Assembly (NCBI GenBank): GCA_027460535.1
Contig: JAPZAR010000031.1
Span: forward strand, 90,001 to 122,000
Origin: Candidatus Methanoperedens sp.
GTDB lineage: Archaea > Halobacteriota > Methanosarcinia > Methanosarcinales > Methanoperedenaceae
Reading direction: 5' to 3'
Length of the DNA stretch: 32,000 nt
The position numbers were made by a program, and so were the translations under genes. The notes under the pieces were generated by a model. It was given only the letters and a program-made list of their open reading frames with translations, had not been told where the DNA came from and ran no database searches. Positions 1,752-30,172 of the stretch are shown here, piece after piece. How positions within the stretch are numbered: position 1 is the first letter of the stretch; the number at the start of each line of letters is the position of its first letter.

Positions 1752-2996
1752 TTAATCTCTCCTCAGTATTAAATATCCTGTCGTAACAAGTCCTGCCATT
1801 GCAAACAACTCCCAATACCACTGCTGTGGTTCGGCTATAATGCCCGGTTTCGTATCCGTCTGCAGGGAATTTGACGATAGTGTTTGAGATGGCGCTGCTG
1901 CCTGCAGCGAGGCAGGCGCTGGAGTTGCAGCTGCTGTCTGTGTCGCAGCGGGCATGGTAGTAGCAGTTGCTGTAGCACTTGCGGCTTTTAATTCCACCTT
2001 GGGCGCTGTCGGAATTGTTTGTTCGAGAATCGGATAGAACCGCAGCGCAGTCGAACTATCCGCCACCCTGAACTTCAGGTCACCGTACAACGGCTGCACC
2101 GTGTTCTGGTCAAGGTTTATGGTCTTGTCCTTATTGTAGAGGAGCACGTAGTTTTCATTTGCCTCCTTGACCTCAAATACCCCAAACGCATCCCCAGCTT
2201 TGACCTCAAGCACATTCTGTGAGATGAACCATGTATATCTGAGCTGGACTAAAGTAGACATACCTTCTGCACCTGCAAAAATGCTCACTACATTTGTAAC
2301 GAATACCGGGACATCGGATTCACCTTTCAGGTTATTCACGGAATACGAATAAACGTCACCCTCGTTAACCACTTTATTATCCAATATTTTTCCATCCCTG
2401 GATAAGGAAAGGTGCGCCTGTCTTGGGGATGCTGTTGTATCAAGTGCTTCGACAGTAAGATTATAACCTTCCCCGAGCTCCCAGATTGTACCAAGCTTTA
2501 ATGTCTTCTGTTCTTCAATACCTCTTCCCTGATTAACAAGTAACCTGGCTAACTTATTTGCTTTGCCGTTTACAGCCACGTACTGCACGCCAAACCAGCC
2601 AAGCTGAGCATATTTACCGCCTGTAGCGCTCTTTGTAAAGGTACCGCTGCTGTAATCAAGACCATTCTCTACTTCTTTGCCCTTCTCAGTGAACACTGTA
2701 AAGTTCTGGTCTGTGAGTGAGGTATTATAGAAAAGATTTTCCTTCTGGATAGTCCTGCTGCTGGCTGTTAAGCTTGATGCAGATTGAGTAATGCTGAGAG
2801 TTTCACTTGATTTGCCGCCGTTAAAGTTATACCAGAAACCCGGGAATTTCTGGGCATCCCACAGCAATGTGGTATTATATATTTTCGAACCCTGGTCAAA
2901 AACAACGCCGTGAATCTCGACTTTGGTCACATTGGCAGCAGTTGCGGGCATTATTAAAATGAGCACGAGTGCAAATATTGCTATTATTTTTTTCAT
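1752..2996 (-). CDS. S-layer-type surface protein (Methanosarcinales S-layer duplication domain, DUF1608-like) with signal peptide and C-terminal membrane anchor
   Basis: 414 aa. N-terminal signal peptide MKKIIAIFALVLILIMPATA. Domain strings GFWYNFNGGKSSETLSI, YAQLGWFGVQYVAVNGKANKLARLL, KTLKLGTIWELGEGYNLTVEALD, AHLSLSRDGKILD. Ala/Thr/Gln-rich linker, then C-terminal TM WYWELFAMAGLVTTGYLILRRD. Confidence 0.75.
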   Translation of the reverse strand: MKKIIAIFALVLILIMPATAANVTKVEIHGVVFDQGSKIYNTTLLWDAQKFPGFWYNFNGGKSSETLSITQSASSLTASSRTIQKENLFYNTSLTDQNFTVFTEKGKEVENGLDYSSGTFTKSATGGKYAQLGWFGVQYVAVNGKANKLARLLVNQGRGIEEQKTLKLGTIWELGEGYNLTVEALDTTASPRQAHLSLSRDGKILDNKVVNEGDVYSYSVNNLKGESDVPVFVTNVVSIFAGAEGMSTLVQLRYTWFISQNVLEVKAGDAFGVFEVKEANENYVLLYNKDKTINLDQNTVQPLYGDLKFRVADSSTALRFYPILEQTIPTAPKVELKAASATATATTMPAATQTAAATPAPASLQAAAPSQTLSSNSLQTDTKPGIIAEPQQWYWELFAMAGLVTTGYLILRRD

Positions 2997-3303
2997 TTTT
3001 ATTATCTCCGTATGCCAGACATTTTCCCAAACTTATATAATGATAGAGAAATCAGCAAGAGTTGTCATCATAGTTCCAGAAACCAAATAAACCCGGCAAA
3101 TTAATCCGCATATATTCCAATTAGCGAGGATTCAAAGCAAAATCATCCTCTTTACAATATTAAATAGACTGAAAGAAGTAAGCGCATGTGCAATCGCGGT
3201 TGCACACCTGTGCAACAGAGTGAGCTTCTCCCATCTCCATACCTCCGACCATCAGATTATAAAAAATTTTGAGAGGAATATCAGTAAAAGCAACAAAAAC
3301 TGT

Positions 3304-3522
3304 TCAGCATTTTCTTATAATCACTCTAAGATCTCGGCCCGAATCCTCAATCTTAACTATCTCATGCCCGTGTTCCTTGCTCCACCGCGGAATCGTATCT
3401 TTTGCGATGGTATCATCAGTCAATACTTCAAGCTCTTCCCCGGGTTTCAACCCGTCGATCTCTTTCTTGGTGTAGAACAGCGGCAGCGGGCATACCTTGC
3501 CTCTTGCGTCTAATTTATGCAT
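3304..3522 (-). CDS. TusA/SirA-family sulfur-carrier protein
   Basis: 72 aa, LDARGKVCPLPL (CPxP active-site motif), with typical length and the ...EIVKIEDSGRDLRVIIRK ending. Confidence 0.85.
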   Translation of the reverse strand: MHKLDARGKVCPLPLFYTKKEIDGLKPGEELEVLTDDTIAKDTIPRWSKEHGHEIVKIEDSGRDLRVIIRKC

Positions 3523-4451
3523 GTATCTCCCATGAATTTCCGGTTTATTGTAATTTAAGGTGCAGGCAAAAATTGCTCTTATTGTTTGCCTTAGCCTTTA
3601 ACCCGATATCCAGCACGAGACTGGGTATCTCGGTACACGGTCTTTGGATTGTGCCAACAAAGATTTGTCATATTTATCGACCTTTAAAATAAACCTCGTG
3701 TTCATTATTTGATTCAGCTGCCTTCTCAACTCTTGCTATCATAGCATCAAGAGTGTCAAGTATCGGCGTTCTCCTCTGCGTTCGTGAGTACTCAAACTCG
3801 CGCCATTCCTTCAACGTATCGAGAACCGGAGTTGTTTTCTGTTCTTTGCCTTTGTCGGAGACAAAGACGATTCCTTCTTTTGATGTTTTTCATTTTGTAT
3901 CACCTGATACATAACAAATAACTCAATACTTATATCAATTCAGAAATCAGCAACTTTTGACAGATATATTCTGAAACTGTAACAATAGAGACAATTTTTT
4001 CCCACTGATTATACCTTATGGCGGCTCAGCCCGCAATAGCAAGCCAACCATGACCGATGGAGGCAACCATCTCCCAAAACACTGGATAAAAGCTGCCTGC
4101 GGGAGATCGTGAGGGTTGATAAAGGGAGCATGAGCCGTTACTCTAGAAGTTTCACACAATACATCACAACAAATTGATTTTTATGGGATTATTGCCTTGG
4201 TCTTCCTGAAAACCGAATGAATTTGTCAAATTTGGCTCATTTCTCGATTTAAATATCTTAGAAAACTATGCTGTATTGGTGATAAAATGACACTACAAGA
4301 AAACAGAAGGGGTTTACTTTGCCCCAGATACAGATACCGGTAAGGGTATAGTTAAAGGGGAATCCAATCTACTGCCCGAAAGCGGGCAGGAAAAAGATTT
4401 GGTTAAAAGCTCAAGCAATCTCCAGATACAGGATTTTGTCTGGTGGCTGAT

Positions 4452-4601
4452 ATGACTTCAACCAAACAGTACAAATGCCCCAACTGCAAGGCCACGATAT
4501 CAATAACGAGCGCGGATTTTATCAAAGGGATAGCCATGGCATCATGCAGTGACTGCGGTAAAGATGCTTTTGCCATCGAAGAAATCCTGTTGAAGGGATA
4601 A
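4452..4601 (+). CDS. Small zinc-ribbon protein (49 aa), hypothetical
   Basis: ATG 4452 to TAA 4599-4601: MTSTKQYKCPNCKATISITSADFIKGIAMASCSDCGKDAFAIEEILLKG, with two CxxC pairs. Below the ORF-track length cutoff and has no obvious RBS. Confidence 0.3.
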   Translation: MTSTKQYKCPNCKATISITSADFIKGIAMASCSDCGKDAFAIEEILLKG

Positions 4602-4700
4602 AAATGAATAAGCGGGGGGTTCTAGGCGTTGTTGTCATAATATTTTTCTCCTATAATATTTTCTCCTACATAGTAATGTTAAAATGCCTCTGAAGCCGCA

Positions 4701-6357
<1,657 letters not shown>

Positions 6358-6410
6358 TATTCCTCCTATAATTTGCATGATGGCATACGGCTGTCTACTG
6401 AATAGTTAAT

Positions 6411-6421
6411 ATTATATAAAG
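6411..6421 (-). promoter_or_regulatory. Candidate archaeal TATA box for amtB-glnK
   Basis: The minus strand reads CTTTATATAAT, ~54 nt upstream of the 6357 start, in the AT-rich divergent intergenic region. Confidence 0.4.
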
Positions 6422-6433
6422 CTTATCATAGAT

Positions 6434-6465
6434 AATATCTTTATACTGAATATCTTTATATATTA
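6434..6465 (+). promoter_or_regulatory. Candidate nifH promoter: direct 12-mer repeat AATATCTTTATA (6434-6445, 6449-6460), the second copy forming a TATA box (CTTTATATATTA, 6454-6465)
   Basis: Read directly. The TATA-like box lies ~45-55 nt upstream of the nifH ATG (6508). RBS GAGGAGGA at 6496-6503. Confidence 0.4.
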
Positions 6466-6480
6466 TTAAATCACCAGTAG

Positions 6481-7332
<852 letters not shown>

Positions 7333-7336
7333 GAAC

Positions 7337-7654
7337 ATGAAGATGATACGTGCAATAATCAGGCCGAACAGGGAAGAAAAAGTCGTGGAGCATCTGGAAA
7401 AAGATGGATTCTACTCCATGACCAAGATGAATGTGTTCGGGCGAGGCAAACAGAAAGGAATCAGGGTAGGGACGGTTTGTTACGATGAACTTCCCAAGGT
7501 GATGCTGATGCTGGTCGTGGAGGACGAGGACGTTCCAAAGGCGGTGAACGTTATCCAGAACAGCGCACGCACCGGGAATATCGGGGACGGCAAGATCTTC
7601 GTGACCGATGTTTCAGAGGCGTACACTGTGAGGACCGGAGAATCAGGATTATAG
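7337..7654 (+). CDS. nifI1: P-II-like nitrogenase regulator NifI1
   Basis: MKMIRAIIRPNREEKV..., GRGKQKG T-loop, TGNIGDGKIFVTDV. The start at 7337 follows GGAGAGGTGA; the track ORF begins 18 nt earlier. Located between nifH and nifD as in methanogen nif operons. Confidence 0.9.
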   Translation: MKMIRAIIRPNREEKVVEHLEKDGFYSMTKMNVFGRGKQKGIRVGTVCYDELPKVMLMLVVEDEDVPKAVNVIQNSARTGNIGDGKIFVTDVSEAYTVRTGESGL

Positions 7655-7662
7655 GTGAGATA

Positions 7663-8040
7663 ATGAAGGAAGTTATCGCCATAATACGAAGGCACAGGTT
7701 GCAGGAGACAAAAGCAGGTCTTCTGGGGATTGGCGTTCCCACCCTTACAATGGTAAGCGTGGAAGGCAGAGGAAAACAGAAAGGACTGCCGGGCTGGAAT
7801 TATGAACTTGATCCCACACTCACTGAGGTGGAAGAGAAAAATACTGGCGCAAGCATGCGCTTTATTCCCAAGAGGATGATATACGCTGTGGTCGAGGATG
7901 AAGATGTCACAAAAGTTGTTGAGACCATAATCAGGACAAACCAGAGCGGGCACATAGGAGACGGCAAGATCTTCGTGTGCCCTCTGGAAGATGCAGTGAG
8001 AGTTAGAACAGGAGAGAGCGGAGAACAGGCATTGAAGTGA
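7663..8040 (+). CDS. nifI2: P-II-like nitrogenase regulator NifI2
   Basis: MKEVIAIIRRHRL..., with an extended T-loop insertion (GRGKQKGLPGWNYELDPTLTEVEEKNTGASMRFIPKR) and C-terminal SGHIGDGKIFVCPLEDAVRVRTGE. Confidence 0.9.
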   Translation: MKEVIAIIRRHRLQETKAGLLGIGVPTLTMVSVEGRGKQKGLPGWNYELDPTLTEVEEKNTGASMRFIPKRMIYAVVEDEDVTKVVETIIRTNQSGHIGDGKIFVCPLEDAVRVRTGESGEQALK

Positions 8041-8052
8041 ATAGTAACGAAC

Positions 8053-8120
8053 CGCAGATAAACGCAGATGAACGCAGATTTACTGCTTCGGATATCTGCG
8101 TTTATTCTGGTTCATCTGCG
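8053..8120. repeat. Phased heptamer repeat / alternative hairpins in the nifI2-nifD spacer
   Basis: CGCAGAT at 8053, 8063 and 8073 (10-nt phase), with inverted ATCTGCG at 8094 and 8114. Exact complementarity for 8058-8069/8094-8105 (12 bp), 8063-8073/8110-8120 (11 bp) and 8071-8079/8094-8102 (9 bp). Confidence 0.8.
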
Positions 8121-8170
8121 ATTAAAATTGTTCAATAGGAATAATAACGCGATAAAAAGGAGAAATAAAC

Positions 8171-9541
8171 ATGACAACAATCTTACCTGAATGCGATATT
8201 CCCATACCGCAGCGTCAGCCACACATTGTATGCCATGAACCCGGGAACATGATACTGCCCATGTGCAATATCCAGACAGTGCCCGGGGACATGACCGAGC
8301 GCGGCTGCACGTTCGCGGGATGCAGGGGTGTGGTAGGCGGACCAGTAAAGGACGCAATACAACTGGTGCACGGTCCGATAGGATGCGCTTATTATACATG
8401 GGGCACGCGCAGGAACCTTTCAGATGTAAAGCTGCACAGGAAGTACTGCTTCAGTACGGACCTGACCGAAGAAAGCGTGATATACGGGGGTGCAAAAAAG
8501 CTACTAAATTCCATTATAGAAGCACATGAACTGTTTCCTGAAGGCAAGGCGGTTTTCGTGTATTCCACCTGCGTGGTCGGGCTGATAGGCGACGATACCG
8601 ACGCTATATGCAAGCAGGCCCAGGAGAAGATCGGAATACCCGTTGTGCCTTTCCATTGCGAGGGCTTCAGGGGCGTGAGCCAGTCCCTTGGACACCACAT
8701 CGCAAACCGCACGCTATTTGAGAAAGTGGTCGGGACAGAGGAGCCCGAGACCACCACGCCCTATGACATGTGCATAATCGGTGAATTCAACATCGACGGC
8801 GATGCCTGGATAGTCAAGCCGCTGTTTGAGAGAATGGGCGTGAGAGTTCTATCAGTATTCACAGGCAATGCCTCGTACCATGACATCCCCCCAATGCACA
8901 GGGCGAAACTGAATATCGTGCAGTGCCAGAGGTCCTCGACCTATATCGCCAAGATGATCCAGGACAAGTACAATATTCCCTATATCAACGTGTCCCTGTT
9001 CGGCATGAAGCAGACTGCGGACGCCCTTCGCGATGTTGGGAAGTTCTTCCACCTTGAAGAGAACGCAGAGAAGGTGATAGCAGAGGAGCTCGCAAAGTAC
9101 CAGCCAATGATCGATCACTATCGGAAGAAGCTTGAGGGCAAGAAGTGCTTCATATACCAGGGAGCGCCGCGAGCCTGGCACTGGATAGACCCGATGCGAG
9201 AGTTAGGTATCGAAGCGATTCTCACGGCAACCACGTTCGGGCACAAGGACGACTACGAGAAAATAATGGAGAAGGCAAAGCCCGGGCATATCTGCATTGA
9301 TAACCCCAATGCCCTTGAGATAGAGGAATACTTGGTCAAGCTCAAGCCTGATTTCTTCATCGGAGGCTTGAAGGAAAAATACCTGACATACAAGCTTGGT
9401 ATTCCCTTTATCAACGGACATTCCTACGAAGAAGGACCATATGCGGGATTTGAGGGCTTTGTGAATTTTGCAAAGGACATTGATGTTGCGGTGAACAGCC
9501 CTGTGTGGAAGTTCATAAACCTGCCACTGGAGGTGAAGTAA
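8171..9541 (+). CDS. nifD: Nitrogenase MoFe-protein alpha chain NifD (short, methanogen-type)
   Basis: 456 aa. HGPIGCAYYTWGTRRN, VYSTCVVGLIGDD, LNIVQCQRS, PFINGHSYEEGPYAGFEGF. The stop abuts the nifK ATG (9541/9542). Confidence 0.95.
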   Translation: MTTILPECDIPIPQRQPHIVCHEPGNMILPMCNIQTVPGDMTERGCTFAGCRGVVGGPVKDAIQLVHGPIGCAYYTWGTRRNLSDVKLHRKYCFSTDLTEESVIYGGAKKLLNSIIEAHELFPEGKAVFVYSTCVVGLIGDDTDAICKQAQEKIGIPVVPFHCEGFRGVSQSLGHHIANRTLFEKVVGTEEPETTTPYDMCIIGEFNIDGDAWIVKPLFERMGVRVLSVFTGNASYHDIPPMHRAKLNIVQCQRSSTYIAKMIQDKYNIPYINVSLFGMKQTADALRDVGKFFHLEENAEKVIAEELAKYQPMIDHYRKKLEGKKCFIYQGAPRAWHWIDPMRELGIEAILTATTFGHKDDYEKIMEKAKPGHICIDNPNALEIEEYLVKLKPDFFIGGLKEKYLTYKLGIPFINGHSYEEGPYAGFEGFVNFAKDIDVAVNSPVWKFINLPLEVK

Positions 9542-10903
9542 ATGGCTTTGATGAATCAGAGTTCTGAGCCTATCAAGACGGTTCGTAAAACTCGAAGCGT
9601 TACAATAAATCCTCCCAAGATGTGTCAGCCTATGGGTGCCATACTCGCCTACATGGGAGTGCACGGCTGCGTTCCACTGGTACATGGTTCCCAGGGATGC
9701 AGCACGTATCCCCGCTACAATATCGCGCGCCATTTCAGGGAATCTGCCGAGGTAGCGGTTTCTTCGCTTGCCGAGGACGCAGCTGTATATGGAGGAGCCA
9801 AGAACCTGACAGAGGCAATAAAGAACATCAAGTCCAGGCTGAACCCGGCTGCAATAGGTATCTGTACCACGTGCATGAGCGAAACGATAGGTGACGATGT
9901 GAAACTGATCGCAAAGAAGGCGCTGGCTGATGATACGATGAAGATATTCCCTGCGTCCACGCCGAGCTATGTTGGCACGCATCTCACTGGCTATGATAAT
10001 GCCCTCAGGACGCTTGTGGAAACGCTGGCACAAAAGGCAGAACCCAATAACAAAATAAACATTATCACGGGCATAATAAACCCCGGCGATATCAGGGAGT
10101 TAAAGAACATGCTGCGCTTAATGAATGTGCAAAGCATATTCCTGTCAGATATCTCCGAAACCCTTGATACTCCCATATTGCCTGGAGGACATAAACCAAT
10201 GCTCCCCGATGGCGGAACAAAGATTGCCGACATCGCAGATTCGGCGAACTCGCTTGGTACCATAGCGATATGCAGGACAGCAGGCTCTGCTGCCGTATAT
10301 CTTAAAAACAAGTTCAACGTGCCCGCGATCCTTGACCCTGCGCCAATCGGCGTTGCAAACACGGACAGGTTCGTGCAGAATATAAGCCGTTTGAGCAAAG
10401 TGCCAATCACAAATGAAATTGTGATCGAACGCGGCCGCCTGATAGACAGCATGGTGGACGTGCATCACTATATGTATGGCAGGAAGGTCGCGATATTCGG
10501 CGACCCTGATCTTGTGTCTGCCATCGTAAGGTTCTGCGCCGAAGCGGGCATGAACCCCACAGTAGCGATGACAGCGACAAAGCACAAGGACTTTGCCCCG
10601 GACATCAAAGCGGTGAACAGCGAATACAAGACCGATACCCAGATACTTGAAGGCACTGACCTCTATGAATTCCATGAGGTCGTGAAAACCCACGGCGCTG
10701 AACTGATACTTGGCAACTCCAAGGGCAAGGACATAGCGGATGATGAGGGTGTTCCTTTAGTGCGCTTCGGGTTCCCTGTGTATGACCGTGTGGGCGTGTA
10801 CCGCTATTCCATCATAGGCTACAACGGCTCGATATACCTTCTTGACCAGATGACGAACGCTATACTGGGGCACAAGTACGACCCAAATAAGCTTCATCAG
10901 TGA
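9542..10903 (+). CDS. nifK: Nitrogenase MoFe-protein beta chain NifK
   Basis: 453 aa. VHGSQGCSTYPR, ICTTCMSETIGDD, STPSYVGTHLTGYDNA. Confidence 0.95.
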   Translation: MALMNQSSEPIKTVRKTRSVTINPPKMCQPMGAILAYMGVHGCVPLVHGSQGCSTYPRYNIARHFRESAEVAVSSLAEDAAVYGGAKNLTEAIKNIKSRLNPAAIGICTTCMSETIGDDVKLIAKKALADDTMKIFPASTPSYVGTHLTGYDNALRTLVETLAQKAEPNNKINIITGIINPGDIRELKNMLRLMNVQSIFLSDISETLDTPILPGGHKPMLPDGGTKIADIADSANSLGTIAICRTAGSAAVYLKNKFNVPAILDPAPIGVANTDRFVQNISRLSKVPITNEIVIERGRLIDSMVDVHHYMYGRKVAIFGDPDLVSAIVRFCAEAGMNPTVAMTATKHKDFAPDIKAVNSEYKTDTQILEGTDLYEFHEVVKTHGAELILGNSKGKDIADDEGVPLVRFGFPVYDRVGVYRYSIIGYNGSIYLLDQMTNAILGHKYDPNKLHQ

Positions 10904-20900: not shown

Positions 20901-21170
20901 GGTTTCATTGTTGTGCAACAGGTCTGGTGAATAAATACGCAGCACTTTTTGCACAGCCTGTTCCTGTGCATCCGCAGGAATATCAGGGTTTAACTTTGCA
21001 ACAGCTTTGCGCAGGCGCTGCGTTAAAATGATCTGATCAAAACCTTCTCTCTCGGCAAACTCGGCGCCGGGGGCGATGGAAAGACCGTGGACATGTTGCC
21101 AGCCTAATGTCTTAAGTATTTCGATGGTAAAGGTTTCGATTTGTGATTCAGTGATTTTATTCGTCGTCAT
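17928..21170 (-). CDS. hsdR: Type I restriction enzyme R subunit HsdR
   Basis: 1080 aa. N-terminal nuclease motif PDILLFINGIPIVLFELK, helicase motifs HTQGSGKS and VIADEAHRTQ, and a C-terminal HsdR tail (LSKEELAFYDALAENGSAVEVLGDDKL...). Confidence 0.95.
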   Translation of the reverse strand: MTTNKITESQIETFTIEILKTLGWQHVHGLSIAPGAEFAEREGFDQIILTQRLRKAVAKLNPDIPADAQEQAVQKVLRIYSPDLLHNNETFHQFLIEKIKIPYQQDGYERSFEVALIDFAHPSNNEFLVVNQYTIVENNQNKRPDILLFINGIPIVLFELKNAADETATIKKAFDQIQTYKATIPGLFAFNEVCIISDGMDCRAGSVSAGFSRYMTWKSADGKKEASRFIPQLEILIKGMLNPTTLLDLVCNFIIFEKSKKKDPKTGITQVETEKKLAAYHQYYAVNKAVENTIKAASTNGNRKGGVVWHTQGSGKSISMVFYSAKLVLSLNNPTVVVITDRNDLDDQLFDTFAASKQLLRQEPVQARDREHLKQLLNVASGGIVFTTIQKFLPEAGKAEFDRLSDRRNIVVIADEAHRTQYGFEAKLVDVKDKETKDVIGKRIAYGFAKYMRDALPNATYIGFTGTPIESTDVNTPAVFGQYVDIYDISQSVADGATVKIYYESRLAKVNLDEEGKRLIAEFDKELEEDEEITDKQRVRAKWAKLEAIVGNPERIKNLARDIVTHFELRTARFEGKGMVVAMSRRIAVDLYNEITKLRPQWHNDDLSKGAIKVVMTASSADGPVMQKHHTTKSQRRDLSDRMKDPEDPLRLVIVIDMWLTGFDVPCLHTLYVDKPMRDHSLMQAIARVNRVFRDKPGGLVVDYLGIATDLKKALSFYSNSGGKGDPAEGQEKAVAAMLEKLEIVRQLFFEESKSKEAILIAEPTAYYGKYPGTGFNYRRFFSASPQEKLSIILQAEEHIMGLENGKNRLIREVTMLSQAFALSVPDGQALAITDEVAFFQAVKARLVKFIGNGGGRSDLDIETTIKQIVDEALSSDQVIDIFDAAGIKKPEISILSQEFLQEIKGMKHQNLALELLKKILNDEIRTRSKTNLVKSKALLEMLETAIKKYNNGLLTTAEIIQFLVDEVAKKIKENDEREAHLGLSKEELAFYDALAENGSAVEVLGDDKLRIIAIEVAEKVKANATIDWTIRESARAKLMVLVKRTLNKYGYPPDMQQKAIDTVLKQAELLADYFVRGEA

Positions 21171-22176
21171 CTTTTTTTCCTGTGATGCGCTTTATCTCTT
21201 TGTCAAAATCGGAGATGTAATTTTTATCCTGAATTTTCTTGAATCTTTCATATTCTTTATTGACCAGAGCCAGAGCAACTTCATGACTGATTTGCCCGGC
21301 ATTGGTGAGTATTTCGTATTCACTGAATTTCAGGAAGGCGTTCAGTTTTTCAATCCAATCTTTCATGTACATTGGCGAATTGCGAACCGCCTGTAATTCC
21401 GCAAAATCAAGATACATGGTAACTATGCGGTTCAAATGATCAAGCTCAGGTTTGTCTAGATAGTTTTTTGCTATGGTAACATCACCTGGCATGATTTTAC
21501 CGCCAGGTGCTTTTCGCCATGATGTCAATCCCATATTTGGCTTGTCGCTGCTGGCTCGTGTGGCTATAATTTCCGCGGCGGTCTGCCCTGTAATGGCAAA
21601 GTGCAGTTTGTTCTGTACCATCGCAAAGAACTGTTTTGTGTCCTGTGCTTTTGGCGAATAGTCAATAGAAGTGGCGTAAATATCAGTAATTTTCTGATAC
21701 AACATCCGCTCACTGGAACGGATATCCCGGATTTCTTCGAGTAAGTCGTCAAAATATCGTGCGCTGAAACGGGAACCATATTTAAATCTGTCGCTGTCAA
21801 TCGCAAAACCTTTATGAATATATTGCTGAAGAATTGAAATTGCCCATTGCCGGAACTGTGTGCCACGTTCTGAGTTAACCCTGTACCCCACCGCGATAAT
21901 TGCTTCAAGCGAATAAAACTTTGTCTGATATTCCTTGCCATCTTCGGCAGTATGTGCAAAATTTGCACATACTGAATCTTCCTCTAACTCGTTCTCAGAA
22001 AAGATGTTCTTCAGGTGCTTGGTGACAACACTACGATCTACATCGAACAGTTCCGCAATCCGCTTCTGGGGAAGCCAGATGTTTTCATTAGCGTATAGCA
22101 CTTCAATGTTGATTTTTCCATCAGGTGTTTGATAAACGGTAATTTGATTGTCGGGTAATTTTTTATTTTTGGCCAT
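21157..22176 (-). CDS. rhuM: RhuM-family (Virulence_RhuM) protein embedded in the R-M operon
   Basis: 339 aa. ITVYQTPDGKINIEVLYANENIWLPQKRIAELFDVDRSVVTKHLKNIF, YSLEAIIAVGYRVNSERGTQFRQWA. Its last 14 nt overlap the hsdR start. Confidence 0.8.
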   Translation of the reverse strand: MAKNKKLPDNQITVYQTPDGKINIEVLYANENIWLPQKRIAELFDVDRSVVTKHLKNIFSENELEEDSVCANFAHTAEDGKEYQTKFYSLEAIIAVGYRVNSERGTQFRQWAISILQQYIHKGFAIDSDRFKYGSRFSARYFDDLLEEIRDIRSSERMLYQKITDIYATSIDYSPKAQDTKQFFAMVQNKLHFAITGQTAAEIIATRASSDKPNMGLTSWRKAPGGKIMPGDVTIAKNYLDKPELDHLNRIVTMYLDFAELQAVRNSPMYMKDWIEKLNAFLKFSEYEILTNAGQISHEVALALVNKEYERFKKIQDKNYISDFDKEIKRITGKKDDDE

Positions 22177-22409: not shown

Positions 22410-23231
22410 TCATTGGTTTAGTTTAAGTACAGAGTTTGCCAGCCTTTTTTCATTGCCTATCGGTGTTGTGTAATATCTCTGCTCAATACCATACAATATC
22501 TTTTTAAGATGGTCGTCTGTGCTAACAAGAAATGTGTCATCTTCTACTGGAACATCTTCACAATACGACCGTATATATTGAAAAATCTGCTGTTTGTTAT
22601 CTTCTGTGAATTGGTTTAATATATCGATTGCCATTGCTATTCGCTTTCTATTGGCTGTTTTCACATTGTTGCAAGTAAATGTTTCATCAAGAGAAATGAA
22701 GTCTTGCTCCAGAAAAGCATCAACTTCGGCTTGAGTGGCTTCTCTGTAGAGTTCCTCAATACCTCTGAATATTGATTTGACTCTTGCTATATTTTTAAAG
22801 TAAAGACTGTCAGCGTTTATATCGTAAACAGCATCAACAAAACTATTGAGGATTATAATAGGCTTATCAATTTCAAGCGTTGGTTCGCTTGAAATGCGAA
22901 ACCACTTTTTATAAATTAATTGAGTTGAAGACATCTTCAGAAAAAGAAAAAAATTGCCTTGTTTGCTACATAAATAATTGATTTTAGAATATTGTCTTAC
23001 AGTTATTTGATTATAAACTGTACTATCAAAGGTGCTTCCTATAAAGTTATTCTCATAACCAAGACTTAAAAAGTTATCTAATTTAAACCATTCACCATCT
23101 TCCAACTTATATGCTGGCGAATATGCTTGACTATCTGATAAGTCAGGCAAATCAAATACGCCTCTTTGAACTGACATGACCTTCAAAAACTCTGCATTTC
23201 GACCTTTTATTTCTGCTAGTAAATAATTCAT
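22410..23231 (-). CDS. Hypothetical 273-aa soluble protein; candidate KwaB-like (DUF4868-like) defence protein, family unverified
   Basis: Start at 23231 (MNYLLAEIKG...) follows GGAAAGG; the track ORF starts 24 nt earlier inside a tandem duplication. No enzymatic motif recognised. Lies downstream of a 4-TM gene inside the R-M operon and is very AT-rich. Confidence 0.5.
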   Translation of the reverse strand: MNYLLAEIKGRNAEFLKVMSVQRGVFDLPDLSDSQAYSPAYKLEDGEWFKLDNFLSLGYENNFIGSTFDSTVYNQITVRQYSKINYLCSKQGNFFLFLKMSSTQLIYKKWFRISSEPTLEIDKPIIILNSFVDAVYDINADSLYFKNIARVKSIFRGIEELYREATQAEVDAFLEQDFISLDETFTCNNVKTANRKRIAMAIDILNQFTEDNKQQIFQYIRSYCEDVPVEDDTFLVSTDDHLKKILYGIEQRYYTTPIGNEKRLANSVLKLNQ

Positions 23232-23235
23232 AATA

Positions 23236-23290
23236 TTACCTTTCCATATCCACAAATGTATATTTACCTTTCCATATCCATAAATGTATA
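23236..23290. repeat. 28-nt tandem duplication at the junction of the TM gene and the 273-aa gene
   Basis: TTACCTTTCCATATCCACAAATGTATA (23236-23262) and TTACCTTTCCATATCCATAAATGTATA (23264-23290), one mismatch. It duplicates the last codons, stop and GGAAAGG of the upstream gene. Confidence 0.9.
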
Positions 23291-23806
23291 ATTATTGATG
23301 CGTTTTAGATTGTCAAATGCTGCGCTTTTAGGCTCTTTTATTTGCTTTCGTGTAATTAATAACACTTTGATATTCTTATTGTTCACGAGATAATAAAAGT
23401 TGAATCCAAACAGGAAAAATATCGGATTAAAATAAGAAATTCTGGAATAAAAAATAAAAATACAAATTATCCCGAAAACATAAAGAAATACCTCAATGTT
23501 TGGAATGCTTAACGCAACAAAAAAATAACCTAAATAACTTGGTAAGAATGCGTCATTGGCTGGTTCAATAACCGAGATGGAGCCTGCATCTATCGTGTCT
23601 GTGCCTAAAAAGTTAATAAGCCGCATACTCAGCCATGTAAATATTAAAACTACTACAAAATATAAAATATAAGAAATTATATTTGGTAAGCTTGAAAGGT
23701 ATGGATACAAAGAGTTTATGACAATCCCTTCTTTAATAAGAAATACAATCAACGAGAGTAATAATGAATTTAATGTCAAACAAAATTTAAAAATGTGTTC
23801 TATCAT
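23264..23806 (-). CDS. Hypothetical 180-aa 4-TM membrane protein; candidate KwaA-like partner, family unverified
   Basis: Four hydrophobic segments (FKFCLTLNSLLLSLIVFLI, IISYILYFVVVLIFTWLSM, LPSYLGYFFVALSI, VFLYVFGIICIFIFY) and a basic C-terminal tail. ATG lies 9 nt after the hsdS stop, behind AGGAGG. Confidence 0.5.
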   Translation of the reverse strand: MIEHIFKFCLTLNSLLLSLIVFLIKEGIVINSLYPYLSSLPNIISYILYFVVVLIFTWLSMRLINFLGTDTIDAGSISVIEPANDAFLPSYLGYFFVALSIPNIEVFLYVFGIICIFIFYSRISYFNPIFFLFGFNFYYLVNNKNIKVLLITRKQIKEPKSAAFDNLKRINNYTFMDMER

Positions 23807-23815
23807 TCATCCTCC

Positions 23816-25015
23816 TCACATTTCAACCCTCACTTCCCCGCTCATCAACTTCGGCAGCAGCGTATCGCGCAGGCGGGTGAGGGTGCGGATTTGGATTTGA
23901 TTGCTTTTTATTTTTTCAAAAGTTGGATTAATTATTTCATGCATTTCTTTTAATTTATTTTTTGGCGGAACTAATACCGTTGCACTTGATAAATGATGTC
24001 TTTGGATATGTCCCATTGTGGTTGCTTTATCTTCTGCTATTCCTTGAAATTCAGGTAAGTGATATTTCACCCAGAAATAATAAAACCATTGTGGAAATTC
24101 AGTTGATGAAACTTTAAATAAATGTTGATTCAAAACTCCTTTACCTTCTGACCAAATCACAATATCTAAACTACCTGACCATGAGAAAAGCATATCACCA
24201 TTATGAACCAAATATTTTTCAGGAACATCATTAGTTGCAATATCCGAAGCATCTGTAATTCCTGTTCTCAATTCTTTTATCTTGATAACAGGCAAACCAA
24301 CTTCACCGACTTTTGCTGGAAATTTCTGACAAGCTAAACCATTTAAGAACTCTGCAATTTCATCCATACCTTTTTCTTCCCACCCCTCCTCCGCCTCTTC
24401 CACAAACCACTGCCTGAACAGCGTCTCTGCCAGTGCCTCCAGGGTTTTGTTCTGGCGGTGCAGCAGGTCTATTTTGTTGTCGAGGCTGGAAAGCACAGAG
24501 GCGATGGATTGTTGTTCTAGGAGGGGGGGGACAGGGAGAAAAATTTCCTTTAAAGCAGAAAGATTTAATGTTGGCTGAACTGTATCGTTTGTGTGACTAT
24601 AGATTTGATATTTTACTTGTTCAAAAGAGAAGCAGTATTTTATAAATGATTTATCATAAGCCTCAGAAATATTGGAAACACTCACTGCTCTTGCAACATT
24701 CCAACCTTTGTAGACATTGGGGACAATTGCACATTCTCCAACACTTCCAACAACCGTTAATAAAAGTTCCCCACCCTTAAGTCTTGTTCGGGAATATTTT
24801 TTTTCAATCTCTTTATCTACCATCATCACATCAACTGAAAAAATTCTTCCGTCTTTTATGTTATTAACTCTAAGAACAGGGATACTATTGGTAACTTGAT
24901 GGAAACCGGGTTGAACAATGCCATAAGACAGACCATTCGGGATAATTATTCTCTCAAAAGGCAAGCAGTCCCAATGTTTAGGAATTAATCCAACTTTACT
25001 GTCTTTGTATTCCAT
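23816..25015 (-). CDS. hsdS: Type I R-M specificity subunit HsdS
   Basis: 399 aa with two target-recognition halves. Central conserved region LPVPPLLEQQSIASVLSSLDNKIDLLHRQNKTLEALAETLFRQWF and C-terminal IRTLTRLRDTLLPKLMSGEVRV. ATG lies 1 nt after the hsdM stop. Confidence 0.93.
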   Translation of the reverse strand: MEYKDSKVGLIPKHWDCLPFERIIIPNGLSYGIVQPGFHQVTNSIPVLRVNNIKDGRIFSVDVMMVDKEIEKKYSRTRLKGGELLLTVVGSVGECAIVPNVYKGWNVARAVSVSNISEAYDKSFIKYCFSFEQVKYQIYSHTNDTVQPTLNLSALKEIFLPVPPLLEQQSIASVLSSLDNKIDLLHRQNKTLEALAETLFRQWFVEEAEEGWEEKGMDEIAEFLNGLACQKFPAKVGEVGLPVIKIKELRTGITDASDIATNDVPEKYLVHNGDMLFSWSGSLDIVIWSEGKGVLNQHLFKVSSTEFPQWFYYFWVKYHLPEFQGIAEDKATTMGHIQRHHLSSATVLVPPKNKLKEMHEIINPTFEKIKSNQIQIRTLTRLRDTLLPKLMSGEVRVEM

Positions 25016-25016
25016 A

Positions 25017-26624
25017 TCATCCCACAGTTGTGTTATTGATATTGATTTTAGAAAGATTGTTTTGAATACGATTGTTTAATTCGGTTTCTTCGATAATTTG
25101 TTTTTCCAACTCGGTTTTCAGAGAAATAAATCGTTCAACAAAATTGAAATCATCCTCATCATCTGGCAAGCCAATATACCTGCCGGGTGTCAGTACATAG
25201 TTCAAAGTCTTTACGTCATCCAGTGCCGCTGATTTACAGAATCCCTGCACATCCTTATATTCCCCTTCACCTGTGCGCCAGTTGTGATATGTGCGCCCGA
25301 TCAATGCAATATCTTCATCAGATAACTCCCTGTTTTTGCGGTTAATCAAATGCCCCATATTACGGGTATCAATAAACAATATTTTGCCCTTGCGTTGCTG
25401 TTTGTTACGGCTCAAAAACCACAAGCATGCGGGAATCTGGGTATTCAGGAATAGCTTGGTTGGAAGATTCACAATGCAATCTATTAAATCATTTTCCACC
25501 ATAGCCTTGCGTATATCGCCTTCGTTGTTGGTTTTGGTGGTCAGTGAACCCTTAGCCAAAACAAAGCCAGCCTGCCCCGTCGGCGCCAGATGATAGAGGA
25601 AATGCTGTATCCATGCATAGTTGGCGTTGGCTGGCGGCGGCGGCAGTTTTTGTCCTAATACGCTCCAGCGCGCATCATCACGGAGCATCTCGCCGCTCCA
25701 GTCACTGTCGTTGAATGGGGGATTTGCAATGATGTAATCGGCCTTCAGATCCTTATGCATATCGTTGAGAAAAGAGCCTTCATTGTTCCACTTTACATTG
25801 CTGCTGTCAATGCCGCGGATGGCAAGGTTCATTTTGGCCAGGCGCCAGGTGGTCTGGTTGCTCTCCTGCCCGTATATTGAGATGCGGTCTTTGGGATCAA
25901 TGCTTAATTTCCTGCCATTATTTTTTTTATAATGATCCTGATGCGCCTCAATGAACTTTTCACTCTGCACAAACATACCGCCAGAACCGCAGCAGGGGTC
26001 AAAAACGCGCCCTTCATAAGGCTCAAGCATCTCAACCAGTAGCTTTACAACGCTACCCGGAGTGTAGAACTGTCCTCCCTTTTTGCCTTCTGCCAATGCA
26101 AATTCACCCAAGAAATATTCAAATACCTTGCCCAAGAGGTCTTTACCTTTTGCTTCCTTAGTACCCAATTCCGCGCTGCCTATAAGGTCAATCAAACCGC
26201 CAAGGCTCTGTTTGTCTAATTTCTCCTGTGCAAATACTCTGGGCAACACCCCTCTGAGGGAAGGGTTGTCCTTTTCGATTGCATCCATGGCTTCATCTAC
26301 ATCTTTGCCTATGGTGGGAAGCTTTGCTCGACCCTGCAACCAATTCCAGCGCGAAGAAGGGGGCACGTAAAAAACCTTTTCAGCAGTGTATTCATTCTTA
26401 TCTTCGGGGTCAGCACCTTCATAGGCGCCTTTGCCTTCTTTCAGCTTTTGATGAAGTTCGAGAAAGGCGTCAGAAATATATTTCAGGAAGATCAAGCCCA
26501 AAACAATATGCTTGTATTCGGCTGCATCCATGTTCTTGCGCAACTTGTCGGCTGCCTTCCAGAGTTTCTTTTCTAAGGGTTCATCATTGTGGTTATTTTT
26601 TTCTTTATCGAACCGGGCCATCAA
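25017..26624 (-). CDS. hsdM: Type I R-M N6-adenine DNA methyltransferase subunit HsdM
   Basis: 535 aa. HsdM N-terminal domain (LWKAADKLRKNMDAAEYKHIVLGLIFLKYISD), motif I VFDPCCGSGGMF, catalytic IIANPPFNDSDW. Confidence 0.95.
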   Translation of the reverse strand: MMARFDKEKNNHNDEPLEKKLWKAADKLRKNMDAAEYKHIVLGLIFLKYISDAFLELHQKLKEGKGAYEGADPEDKNEYTAEKVFYVPPSSRWNWLQGRAKLPTIGKDVDEAMDAIEKDNPSLRGVLPRVFAQEKLDKQSLGGLIDLIGSAELGTKEAKGKDLLGKVFEYFLGEFALAEGKKGGQFYTPGSVVKLLVEMLEPYEGRVFDPCCGSGGMFVQSEKFIEAHQDHYKKNNGRKLSIDPKDRISIYGQESNQTTWRLAKMNLAIRGIDSSNVKWNNEGSFLNDMHKDLKADYIIANPPFNDSDWSGEMLRDDARWSVLGQKLPPPPANANYAWIQHFLYHLAPTGQAGFVLAKGSLTTKTNNEGDIRKAMVENDLIDCIVNLPTKLFLNTQIPACLWFLSRNKQQRKGKILFIDTRNMGHLINRKNRELSDEDIALIGRTYHNWRTGEGEYKDVQGFCKSAALDDVKTLNYVLTPGRYIGLPDDEDDFNFVERFISLKTELEKQIIEETELNNRIQNNLSKININNTTVG

Positions 26625-26734: not shown

Positions 26735-27319
26735 TCATAATAGATGACTTTTTGTAACTTCAATAATTCGATCTAACATAATAGCTGAATTTCTAAATTT
26801 CATATCCTTTTCCTGTGGATTTCCAATTTTCTCTCTAAAACCTTGTGTTATAGAATCAAGGACAATATCCAAGTCTTCTCTTAGTTTTATCTCTTTCTCA
26901 TTTAAGACTTCATTTAAGTCAGGTTGATTTTCTGTATGATATTTCTTCATATAATTGGATATTTTAATAATTTGATTTTCAATTTCTTCTTGTGATTTCT
27001 TTTTGAAGATGTTCTTATCATTTTTAATAAAGGATATCCAATTCTTACTATTTCGTTTACTATTACAAGTAGGGCAGGACGGAACTACATTTCCTATAAC
27101 ATGAAGTCCACCAATTGTTTCTGGCCACAAATGGTCAGGCTGTAAATCTTGATCATCCTTGGAAATACCACAATAAACACAATTAGGCCCTAATTCCTCA
27201 AGTGATCTCTCAAATGCATCCTCTTGACTATGCTTCTGCAATAAAACTGATAAAATAGCCTTTCTAAATGCACCACGTCCATTTCCTAGAATTTGTGCAA
27301 TTGGTTTCGGTTTTGGCAT
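26735..27319 (-). CDS. HNH endonuclease-domain protein
   Basis: CVYCG...QPDHLWPETIGG...GNVVPSCPTCNSKRN (CxxC / DH / N / CxxC-N), followed by a Lys/Glu-rich helical C-terminal half. Own AAGGAG RBS and an AT-rich upstream box. Confidence 0.8.
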   Translation of the reverse strand: MPKPKPIAQILGNGRGAFRKAILSVLLQKHSQEDAFERSLEELGPNCVYCGISKDDQDLQPDHLWPETIGGLHVIGNVVPSCPTCNSKRNSKNWISFIKNDKNIFKKKSQEEIENQIIKISNYMKKYHTENQPDLNEVLNEKEIKLREDLDIVLDSITQGFREKIGNPQEKDMKFRNSAIMLDRIIEVTKSHLL

Positions 27320-27454: not shown

Positions 27455-28480
27455 TCAATCTTCACCTGATTCATATGTTTCTAAAAGTAAAACCGAAACT
27501 CCCGGGCCGCCTTCATCATTCCATTGCCCTTCGTGTCTATTCGGTGGAAGGTCATTATTTGAAAAAGAAAAATCAACCAACTCCTGCAGGAAAGATCGTC
27601 TTGATGGTCGTATGCTAGGAGGCGTTGCATAGAAACACCCATCTATTTCAGATGGCGAAGCTCCTGTAGTTCTAGGTTGTTTTCCGTATTTAGAATTAGC
27701 TCTTCGAAATGCTTTTTCAGCGGAGCTTTTTAAAATGTCCCAAACGACTCTTGACCATCCATTTTCCTTAATAGCTGTTTTGCTATCATCAAATGGATCA
27801 CCGGAAAGGAGTTCCAATGAATGAACAATTTCCAATCCGAGGTCACAATGATCCATTATCGGATTGCTTGGAATGCAAGATCCGATAGGATAGGTGCATG
27901 GACTACCCAATATACCGGATTCCGGTCTTTCAGGAGGTCGGTCATCAATAAGTAGATATTGAGCGCCTCTACGTGGAGCTGAGGGCTTAACGTGTCTTGT
28001 TTGACCATTTAATGAGCCAGAAGTGACATAGGTAAATGCAGGCCACGTTGAATAAAGTTTTAATTGGTCTTTGTCATTTCCACGAAGTTTATATGGCTGA
28101 ACCGCAGACTTTTTTGCCTGATATAAAATTGCATTTCTAATTACATTTCCGTCAATATCAGAATGGACATGACACCATAATAAATCGCCGAGTTCGCATG
28201 AGTTGCCTTTCATACCGCTAAAGTTGACTTTAGGTGTCTGATGACAATAAATTCCAGTAACAACAATCCGGATTCCGAGTGAATCAAAAACATTGCGCCA
28301 TTCATTTTCAATAATTTTTGTACCATTTAAAACCAAAGATGCAACGATATCTGGTTCTTCAGGCTCATTACCTCTGATTCTACAATTATTCCATGCTTCA
28401 ATCATGCTTACTGATATTGCATATCGAGCAGAAGTAACTAGATAAGGCTTAACCTTCATAACAGTAAGCAAAAATGACAT
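27455..28480 (-). CDS. Orphan 341-aa protein with a PD-(D/E)xK-like (Mrr-type D..QxK) motif
   Basis: Long uninterrupted ORF. SCELGDLLWCHVHSDIDGNVIRNAILYQAKK resembles the E / D.DG / QxK restriction-endonuclease-fold core. The rest, including the Pro/Ser/Arg-rich C-terminal third, is unrecognised. Confidence 0.6.
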   Translation of the reverse strand: MSFLLTVMKVKPYLVTSARYAISVSMIEAWNNCRIRGNEPEEPDIVASLVLNGTKIIENEWRNVFDSLGIRIVVTGIYCHQTPKVNFSGMKGNSCELGDLLWCHVHSDIDGNVIRNAILYQAKKSAVQPYKLRGNDKDQLKLYSTWPAFTYVTSGSLNGQTRHVKPSAPRRGAQYLLIDDRPPERPESGILGSPCTYPIGSCIPSNPIMDHCDLGLEIVHSLELLSGDPFDDSKTAIKENGWSRVVWDILKSSAEKAFRRANSKYGKQPRTTGASPSEIDGCFYATPPSIRPSRRSFLQELVDFSFSNNDLPPNRHEGQWNDEGGPGVSVLLLETYESGED

Positions 28481-29147: not shown

Positions 29148-29188
29148 ATGTCTTCGACCCTTCCTGCACCCCAATTCTTAAATATTAT

Positions 29189-29226
29189 TGTTCACATATA
29201 TGAACATATGTTCAAAAAAATGAACG
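29189..29226. promoter_or_regulatory. Tandem palindromic operator candidate: TGTTCA-N6-TGAACA twice
   Basis: TGTTCA (29189-29194) CATATA TGAACA (29201-29206) TA TGTTCA (29209-29214) AAAAAA TGAACG (29221-29226). Overlaps the candidate start codons 29208 and 29220. Confidence 0.5.
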
Positions 29227-29747
29227 TATTCTCAAAGCCCTCCATACAAATAATACAATATCTTGGCAGGAGATATCGAGATGGCTACTATGTCCGCGAG
29301 ATATCAAGAAATCTTGGTATCGGTCTGGGATCAGCGAGCCAGAGCCTGAGAACGCTCGAAGAAGCCGGACTCGTTTTAAAAGAGCACAAGGGCAGGCTGG
29401 TAATATACAGGGCGAACATGCAAAATTTCGTGCTCAGGGAGTTCAAGATACTTCTCACCCTTCTGGAAATATATCCGTTCATCTTGCCCTTAAAAAAAAT
29501 CTCTTCAAGGATCATCCTATTTGGAAGCTGTTCCGCAGGGGAGGACACAATAGACAGCGATATCGATATTTTCATTGAATCCGATAATAAAAGAGATGTT
29601 TCCATGCTTCATGACCGTTATTGGGAAGAGATCCCCAGGAAGATATCTCCCATTATTCTGGACGCCTCTGAATTCAGGAACCTGGAGGCTAAAGACAGAC
29701 CACTTTTCGAAAGGATTAACATTGGAAAAGTAATCCATGAAACATAA
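29208..29747 (+). CDS. wHTH + minimal nucleotidyltransferase (MNT) protein, antitoxin-type partner of HEPN
   Basis: The N-terminal wHTH (VREISRNLGIGLGSASQSLRTLEEAGLVLKEHKGRLVIY) is followed by the NTase motif ILFGSCSAGEDTIDSDIDIFI. The start is probably 29208 or 29220, because the track start at 29148 lies too close to the TATA-like box. Confidence 0.8.
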   Translation: MFKKMNVFSKPSIQIIQYLGRRYRDGYYVREISRNLGIGLGSASQSLRTLEEAGLVLKEHKGRLVIYRANMQNFVLREFKILLTLLEIYPFILPLKKISSRIILFGSCSAGEDTIDSDIDIFIESDNKRDVSMLHDRYWEEIPRKISPIILDASEFRNLEAKDRPLFERINIGKVIHET

Positions 29748-30172
29748 TGAGATATCAGTTTGAACAGTGCATTGACAAAGGTAAGATAGTAAAAATCGAA
29801 ATAGCCTCTGATCTAATATCTAAAGAGATCGATGAGGCAAAAAACGATCTTAATTCATGCGAGAGATCCATACAGGAAAGTAACTTCAAATGGGCGATAA
29901 TCCAGGCATATTATTCCATGTTTCACTCATTTAGAGCCCTTATTTTCAGCAAAGGCTATAGAGAAAAAAGCCACACTTGCATAAAATACGCAATAGAATC
30001 TCTTTTTGTGGACACAGGCGCTCTGGATAACCAGCTCTTACAGGACTTTAGCTATGCCATGAAGGTCCGGGAAGGAGCGGATTATGGAAGTGTATATGGT
30101 AAAGACTCTGCGCTGGAATTGCAGATCTCAGCAGGTAGAATATACGAAGTAGCTAAAAGGTTAATTTCATAG
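29747..30172 (+). CDS. HEPN-domain protein (toxin-type partner of MNT)
   Basis: 141 aa. WAIIQAYYSMFHSFRALIFSKGYREKSH ... AMKVREGADYG (HEPN R..(A)DY region). TAATG overlap with the MNT gene. Confidence 0.8.
   Translation: MRYQFEQCIDKGKIVKIEIASDLISKEIDEAKNDLNSCERSIQESNFKWAIIQAYYSMFHSFRALIFSKGYREKSHTCIKYAIESLFVDTGALDNQLLQDFSYAMKVREGADYGSVYGKDSALELQISAGRIYEVAKRLIS

Follow-up and report, generated by a model that had tools for sequence, protein, structure and literature searches.

Which genes lie between hsdS and hsdR in the type I restriction-modification (R-M) operon of Candidatus Methanoperedens sp., and what might they do? The question arises in a 32,000-nucleotide stretch of contig JAPZAR010000031.1 (hereafter, the window), where two minus-strand genes encoding proteins of 180 and 273 amino acids (aa) follow hsdS. 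The first-pass annotation, made from the sequence by eye, left two options for this cassette: a Kiwa-like system or an undescribed pair riding inside an archaeal R-M operon. We compiled the open reading frames (ORFs) of the window as a six-frame list, which bears out the order and coordinates given there for hsdM, hsdS, the two cassette genes, and an hsdR fragment, and searched the proteins with Pfam, NCBIfam, and PADLOC profiles. By profile and by predicted fold, both cassette proteins fall into the KwaA and KwaB families, which removes the option of an undescribed pair. The cassette is therefore very likely a working Kiwa system, made up of two genes from a remote clade, that shares the orientation of the complete type I R-M operon around it.

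Assignment of the Cassette to Kiwa

The assignment is based on PADLOC matches that are exclusively to Kiwa models, on Foldseek matches that are exclusively to KwaA and KwaB structures, and on the pairing of the two genes in related genomes. For the 180-aa protein, the sole PADLOC matches are KwaA models, and the alignment to PDLC00216 (Table 1) spans positions 32–172 of the 173 in the profile; across its family, the PADLOC KwaA models match 40 of 40 members, with a best E-value of 1.4e-17. Its hydropathy profile has three 19-residue peaks above 2.1, with hydrophobic regions at approximately residues 4–34, 36–69, and 92–126. The AlphaFold2 (AF2) model, with a predicted local distance difference test score (pLDDT) of 90.3, resolves the four hydrophobic segments noted in the first-pass annotation as four helices (2–26, 42–66, 84–100, and 104–119), and the basic tail noted there is confirmed by the last 45 residues, which contain 9 K/R and 4 D/E. 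Strands are modeled in the loop after helix 2 (68–72 and 77–82) and in the C-terminal part (136–142, 147–152, 164–171, and 174–177). In this monomer model, KwaA of the window is predicted to comprise four transmembrane helices and, on the cytoplasmic side, a beta unit of six strands to which the inner loop and the C-terminus contribute. When this model was compared with the PDB using Foldseek, the only matches with E ≤ 1e-3 were five KwaA chains (from 9mrx, 9mrr, and 9mrg), the best being 9mrx_A (E 1e-5, TM-score 0.65/0.61), and the next match had an E-value of 0.9. As a separate observation, the precomputed Pfam accession PF28043 occurs on some KwaA-like homologues (P0146, P0174, P0184, and P0193).

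The second protein is encoded by a frame of 281 aa from a TTG or 273 aa from the ATG at 23231, and the 273-aa version is preferred because homologues are approximately 274 aa long and start with MN.LLA. Its sole PADLOC matches are KwaB models; the alignment to PDLC00222 covers residues 42–275 of the 281-aa ORF and 46–287 of the 292 profile positions, and the KwaB models match 39 of 40 relatives (best E 1.2e-21). It had been described as soluble and free of recognizable catalytic motifs, which agrees with our results: there is no transmembrane-grade hydrophobic stretch (maximum KD19 1.05) and no catalytic domain in the Pfam profile search. In Foldseek, the only significant matches of the KwaB model were the KwaB crystal structures 9nyu_A (E 8.3e-6) and 9mtn_A (E 3.7e-5), both with a probability of 1.0 and aligned over the full length (306–316 columns), followed by a match with an E-value of 1.4. 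On the resemblance to DUF4868 suggested in the first-pass annotation, the profiles disagree: the matching PADLOC KwaB models carry the description "DUF4868 domain" (Table 1), while the corresponding Pfam family does not recognize the protein (see below). UniProt names a 73% identical protein of Methanomethylovorans hollandica DUF4868 domain-containing, whereas NCBI calls it hypothetical. The positions conserved in the KwaB clade and listed as basic are K191, N194, R195, R197, K243, R252, K262, and R263, which at such divergence are not mappable onto E. coli R142, R167, K187, and R233.

We assembled a neighborhood set of 80 genome loci with KwaB relatives, from Methanosarcinales, Campylobacterota, Bacteroidota, Bacillota, Gammaproteobacteria, and Cyanobacteria, and screened the ORFs of all six frames using profiles and the window proteins. 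A kwaA-like gene lies directly upstream of kwaB on the same strand in 79 of these loci, and the 80th ends at a contig edge. Database searches with the two window proteins returned 1108 and 1394 homologues, and the ratio of nonsynonymous to synonymous substitution rates (dN/dS) is 0.12–0.25 for both genes against six archaeal orthologues and 0.17–0.25 against the closest relatives. Based on these homologues and ratios, both ORFs are real genes, and both are under purifying selection.

A membrane/soluble pair of another kind, for instance a toxin-antitoxin-like or transport module with a superficial likeness to Kiwa, would also be compatible with the lack of any Pfam or NCBIfam match to either protein in the profile searches and with Foldseek alignments in which the solved KwaA and KwaB chains share only ~11–20% identity with the window proteins. 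However, the two partners independently retrieve Kiwa and nothing else from both PADLOC and Foldseek, and PF16162 (KwaB/DUF4868) is the only Pfam family that recurs across the wider KwaB clade, which makes an unrelated origin extremely improbable.

Several observations weigh against a functional Kiwa system. PF16162 has no match to the window KwaB at E ≤ 1, and it reaches just 2 of 40 and 10 of 78 KwaB relatives in two sets, weakly, with a best E-value of 6.7e-7. Profiles built from 40 KwaA-clade sequences and from 40 and 78 KwaB-clade sequences failed to reach the KwaA and KwaB chains in the PDB. The KwaB model (pLDDT 76.5) has weak stretches at residues 106–124 and 255–273, and its global superposition on solved KwaB is poor (TM-score 0.37, root-mean-square deviation 16 Å), which suggests either that the two domains are placed differently relative to each other or that the model is imperfect. 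At the DNA level, a 28-nt duplication exchanges the tight kwaA/kwaB junction of relatives for a 32-nt spacer. Finally, the Kiwa mechanism was worked out in E. coli, and its transfer is by analogy to an organism whose envelope and RecBCD context differ: the window encodes an S-layer protein (PF07752), and archaea are not known to have RecBCD.

A phmmer search of both window proteins against PDB sequences also returned nothing relevant. Because these sequence and profile searches of the PDB failed, the link to the solved KwaA and KwaB is made by fold search alone. The weak reach of PF16162 into few members, together with the failed PDB sequence links, indicates that the clade is a remote branch of Kiwa; it comprises 806 clusters at 50% identity (E ≤ 1e-3), so a sizeable part of Kiwa escapes the Pfam KwaB model. 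A homologue on the E. coli plasmid p101EVA-3 (23% identity) was considered as a bridging sequence and was rejected, as it has no match to PDB KwaB either. This small plasmid (L092, NZ_CP138396.1), typed as non-mobilizable, encodes a 292-aa KwaB-clade protein annotated as hypothetical, with a 144-aa, apparently truncated KwaA-like ORF upstream. A search of plasmids for KwaB relatives gave 23 records, and a tblastn search of phage genomes gave no KwaB relative.

Layout of the Composite Operon

The minus-strand order is hsdM-hsdS-kwaA-kwaB-[hsdR relic]-rhuM-hsdR (Table 1). HsdM, HsdS, and a full-length HsdR are all present and co-oriented in the window, and because the full-length hsdR lies downstream of rhuM, the type I R-M operon is complete. 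The hsdR remnant of the first-pass annotation is accordingly a genuine HSDR_N fragment and is not the sole hsdR of the locus. The genes are tightly packed. The hsdS–kwaA junction reads TGA-GGAGGATGA-ATG, so that kwaA starts 9 nt past the hsdS stop behind an AGGAGG motif that overlaps this stop, as had been noted; the gap between kwaA and kwaB is 32 nt on the same strand, no gap around these two genes exceeds this length, and rhuM overlaps the end of the relic and the start of hsdR by 14 nt each. The likely start of hsdM is the ATG at 26621, and gene callers give a protein of 534 aa in identical contigs.

Table 1. Features of the composite operon in the window, with positions and supporting matches or models.
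Feature	Positions	Strand	Evidence
hsdM, type I R-M methyltransferase	25017..26624	-	TIGR00497 E 2.8e-53; PADLOC MTase_I E 2e-181
hsdS, type I R-M specificity subunit	23816..25015	-	PADLOC Specificity_I E 8.6e-84; NF007278 E 1.7e-18
kwaA, 180 aa	23264..23806	-	PADLOC KwaA PDLC00216 E 9e-12; AF2 pLDDT 90.3; Foldseek 9mrx_A
28-nt tandem duplication of the kwaA 3' end	23236..23291	.	two copies, 93% identical, spacing 28
kwaB, 273 aa, soluble, putatively two-domain	22410..23231	-	PADLOC KwaB PDLC00222 E 6.7e-15; AF2 pLDDT 76.5; Foldseek 9nyu_A
hsdR N-terminus relic, 76 aa	22163..22393	-	Pfam HSDR_N E 7.4e-7
RhuM-family gene	21157..22176	-	PF13310 E 4e-107; PADLOC candidate PDC-S05 E 1e-145
hsdR, full length, 1080 aa	17928..21170	-	TIGR00348 E 2.2e-188; PADLOC REase_I 1269 bits, residues 5-1072

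The relic is only 44% identical to the resident HsdR and 72–74% identical to the HsdR N-termini found 3' of kwaB in Methanolobus, Methanosarcina, and Methanococcoides. By sequence, it looks like the remains of a different hsdR allele that has been replaced. The simplest reading is that an earlier hsdR directly following kwaB gave way to a rhuM-hsdR block from another allele, leaving ~60 codons behind. In a locus from Halioglobus, a short HsdR_N-like stretch likewise lies 3' of kwaB, and both stretches fit with movement of the cassette by recombination within hsd flanks.

The 28-nt duplication has no counterpart in five orthologous loci from archaea; in four of them kwaA and kwaB overlap by ATGA, and in the fifth they are separated by 5 nt. 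It keeps both reading frames as well as the GGAAAGG ribosome-binding motif before kwaB. The cassette also differs in base composition from other genes in the window. The spot counts of G+C in the first-pass annotation (13/60 at 23401–23460 and 44/60 at 8281–8340 in nifD) are exact, and whole-gene G+C is 0.287 for kwaA and 0.331 for kwaB, compared with 0.452 for hsdM, 0.434 for hsdR, 0.514 for nifD, and 0.51 for nifHDK. Low G+C as a window-specific sign of recent import is ruled out, since in 69 of the 71 loci (L012–L091) kwaAB falls below its flanks in G+C, with means of 0.309 and 0.375 and differences of up to 0.21.

These features could also describe a decaying passenger, derived from Kiwa and no longer functional in this lineage, as the locus has been rearranged (the hsdR relic and the duplication at the kwaA/kwaB junction) and its G+C is far below that of host genes. 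Yet both ORFs are full length and match their homologues in size, dN/dS is low even against the closest relatives, the duplication spares both frames and the motif before kwaB, and the low G+C is clade-wide. We therefore consider decay to be very improbable and prefer the reading of an intact Kiwa system.

Genomic Neighborhoods of Related Loci

A survey of homologues, the check proposed alongside the first-pass annotation, found type I R-M genes in the flank of 18 of the 51 loci that have at least 8 kb upstream; about two thirds of these 51 have none within the flank. These counts take two or more different Hsd components in the flank as type I R-M, which holds for 21 of all 80 loci; RhuM-like ORFs lie in the flanks of 13 of the 80. 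Given how rare type I R-M loci generally are per genome, 18 of 51 is probably far above chance. Two layouts recur. In the first, hsdM-hsdS-kwaA-kwaB-(rhuM)-hsdR, found in Methanosarcinales and Campylobacterota, the order is the same as in the window. In the second, hsdM-hsdS-hsdR-kwaA-kwaB, found mainly in Bacteroidota, the kwaA frame overlaps or abuts the hsdR frame in 12 loci (L025, L029, L035, L046, L054, L055, L059, L061, L062, L064, L070, and L075), with overlaps of 4–60 nt as measured between stop-to-stop frames and not from called starts; in another locus (L078), kwaA lies 75 nt beyond hsdR.

The composite operon of the first layout is shared with M. hollandica, other Methanosarcinales, and Campylobacterota. 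Two Sulfurimonas loci encode HsdM 66–68% and HsdR 62–63% identical to those of the window, about as close as the proteins of Methanolobus and Methanococcoides (HsdM 69%, HsdR 61–62%), which indicates that the whole composite operon has crossed the domain boundary. Among the closest known parallels is M. hollandica DSM 15978 (Metho_1318/1319, CP003362), with KwaA 74% and KwaB 73% identical to the window proteins and the same order, hsdM-...-hsdS-kwaA-kwaB-rhuM-...-hsdR. It differs in that no hsdR relic is called, kwaA and kwaB overlap by ATGA, and hsdM is separated from hsdS by additional small genes. Cassette swapping within type I R-M operons is cleanly exemplified by the locus of the window, through the remnant of a displaced hsdR allele and through the composite operon common to archaea and Campylobacterota.

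In many places the kwaAB pair is autonomous. In one genome it lies by itself between the housekeeping genes gidA and polA. Its neighbors in Poseidonibacter are HamA with a helicase (Hachiman-like) and also a toxin-antitoxin pair, and those in a Halioglobus metagenome-assembled genome are transposases and a type II system. This bears on whether kwaAB might instead be an accessory of type I R-M that functions only in combination with hsdMSR, for example by tethering the Hsd complex to the membrane or by holding DNA for HsdR. The frequency of type I R-M in long flanks, the two recurrent fused layouts (internal to hsdS/hsdR, or with the kwaA frame overlapping or abutting hsdR), and the mere 9 nt between hsdS and kwaA in the window all agree with dependence, as does the precedent of TgvAB, whose protection against several phages is 10–100-fold lower apart from its host cluster (PMC11411939). 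On the other hand, about two thirds of the long-flank loci lack type I R-M within the flank, the pair between gidA and polA has no such company, and five Kiwa operons protected E. coli after cloning into a Kiwa-less strain. Dependence on hsdMSR is, in our judgment, distinctly improbable.

Another reading, which we consider unlikely, is that this Kiwa clade has become more than a neighbor of type I R-M and routinely partners with it, and that it may cooperate with it mechanistically; its fusion into hsd operons follows two independent layouts, spread over archaea, Campylobacterota, Bacteroidota, and Bacillota. If this were the case, KwaB may hold incoming DNA at the entry site for HsdR or may cover invaders that are methylated or protected by anti-restriction. 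It would also imply that archaea, which are not known to have RecBCD, possess a membrane-level sensor of virus entry operating through the S-layer of the envelope.

Proposed Function and Relation to Known Systems

The Kiwa systems of E. coli O55:H7 and ECOR strains have been described and structurally solved (9mrx, 9mrr, 9mrg, 9nyu, and 9mtn; Zhang et al., PMC11785009). There, KwaA has four transmembrane helices, its inner loop and C-terminus forming a six-stranded cytoplasmic beta-barrel; KwaB combines an N-terminal Rossmann-like domain with a C-terminal DUF4868 domain; and a KwaA tetramer is bound to KwaB dimers in a supercomplex in which KwaB binds DNA through basic C-terminal residues (PMC11785009). 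Kiwa is further characterized by protection against viruses or conjugation that depends on both genes. The window pair shares with these systems two genes with the membrane gene first, a KwaA of ~180 aa with four transmembrane helices and a six-stranded cytoplasmic beta unit (in the window, according to the AF2 model), a soluble and putatively two-domain KwaB, horizontal mobility, and recognition by PADLOC Kiwa models and by fold. In contrast, its KwaB is ~40 aa shorter (273 versus 307–313) and beyond the reach of PF16162, and the pair is archaeal, nested in a type I R-M operon, known from sequence and models, and distant from the solved chains.

By analogy to E. coli, we propose that KwaA would oligomerize into tetramers in the membrane and carry KwaB dimers on its cytoplasmic beta-barrels. 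The complex might be activated when the membrane is perturbed by virus attachment, by DNA entry or ejection, or by conjugation, after which KwaB would bind the entering DNA non-specifically through its C-terminal domain and stall its replication and late transcription, allowing the cell to survive. From the layout of the locus, kwaAB is probably co-transcribed with hsdMS and could add a methylation-independent layer at the site of entry beside methylation-dependent cleavage. The cassette presumably moves between hsd operons via recombination in the flanking hsdS and hsdR, of which the hsdR relic would be a trace.

According to one preprint (10.1101/2024.10.26.620412), Kiwa is among the systems that are more frequent per Mbp in archaea than in bacteria. 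Defense genes embedded in type I R-M have also been described already, for example TgvAB in Vibrio cholerae VPI-2 (PMC11411939), and a guilt-by-embedding survey (Payne et al. 2024, 10.1101/2024.01.29.577857) lists candidates embedded in type I R-M, with no Kiwa in its main text. Like TgvAB, PrrC, and these candidates, the window cassette consists of co-oriented genes nested in an hsd cluster that would provide an independent second layer of defense, and RhuM (PDC-S05) is embedded alongside. It differs from all of them in that the nested system, Kiwa, pairs a membrane sensor with a DNA binder and is not a nuclease.

The pair is thus the known Kiwa system, diverged but intact, and not a new class of system. 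What is new is the assignment of an unannotated archaeal pair to Kiwa, the delineation of a clade beyond the Pfam model, and the recurrent fusion with hsd genes in two layouts. The assignment provides names and a testable mechanism for genes annotated by NCBI as hypothetical in Methanoperedens, Methanosarcina, Methanolobus, and Methanococcoides.

Other Genes in the Window

Immediately upstream of hsdM, a 194-aa HNH protein (26735–27319, minus strand) has weak matches to the HNH region of IscB/Cas9d, to PADLOC PDC-M01B, and to PtuB. It is followed in the upstream direction by a gene for a 341-aa protein (27455–28480, minus strand) that has no Pfam, NCBIfam, or PADLOC match. The 117 homologues of the latter are from Methanoperedens, Patescibacteria, Heimdallarchaeota, and Actinobacteria, and three distant contexts are near VapBC, Mrr, and type IV secretion system genes, with no conserved partner; the 341-aa protein represents an orphan family of variable regions. 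The HNH gene is kept beside the 341-aa gene in identical metagenome contigs, and a conserved HNH/341-aa pair was considered and rejected, as three distant 341-aa homologues have no HNH neighbor.

No tRNA or Rfam family was detected anywhere in the window, and there is therefore no tRNA-linked island boundary. Host genes at 1752–10903 include those for an S-layer protein (PF07752) and an ammonium transporter, as well as nifH, nifD, and nifK. An island protein has an identical counterpart listed under Candidatus Methanoperedens sp., and the best-matching genome locus belongs to a Methanoperedenaceae metagenome-assembled genome. At 29148–30172 on the plus strand, an overlapping pair encodes a nucleotidyltransferase with a helix-turn-helix domain and a HEPN protein, resembling an MNT-HEPN toxin-antitoxin module; its first protein matches PADLOC PDC-M05A with an E-value of 6e-21.

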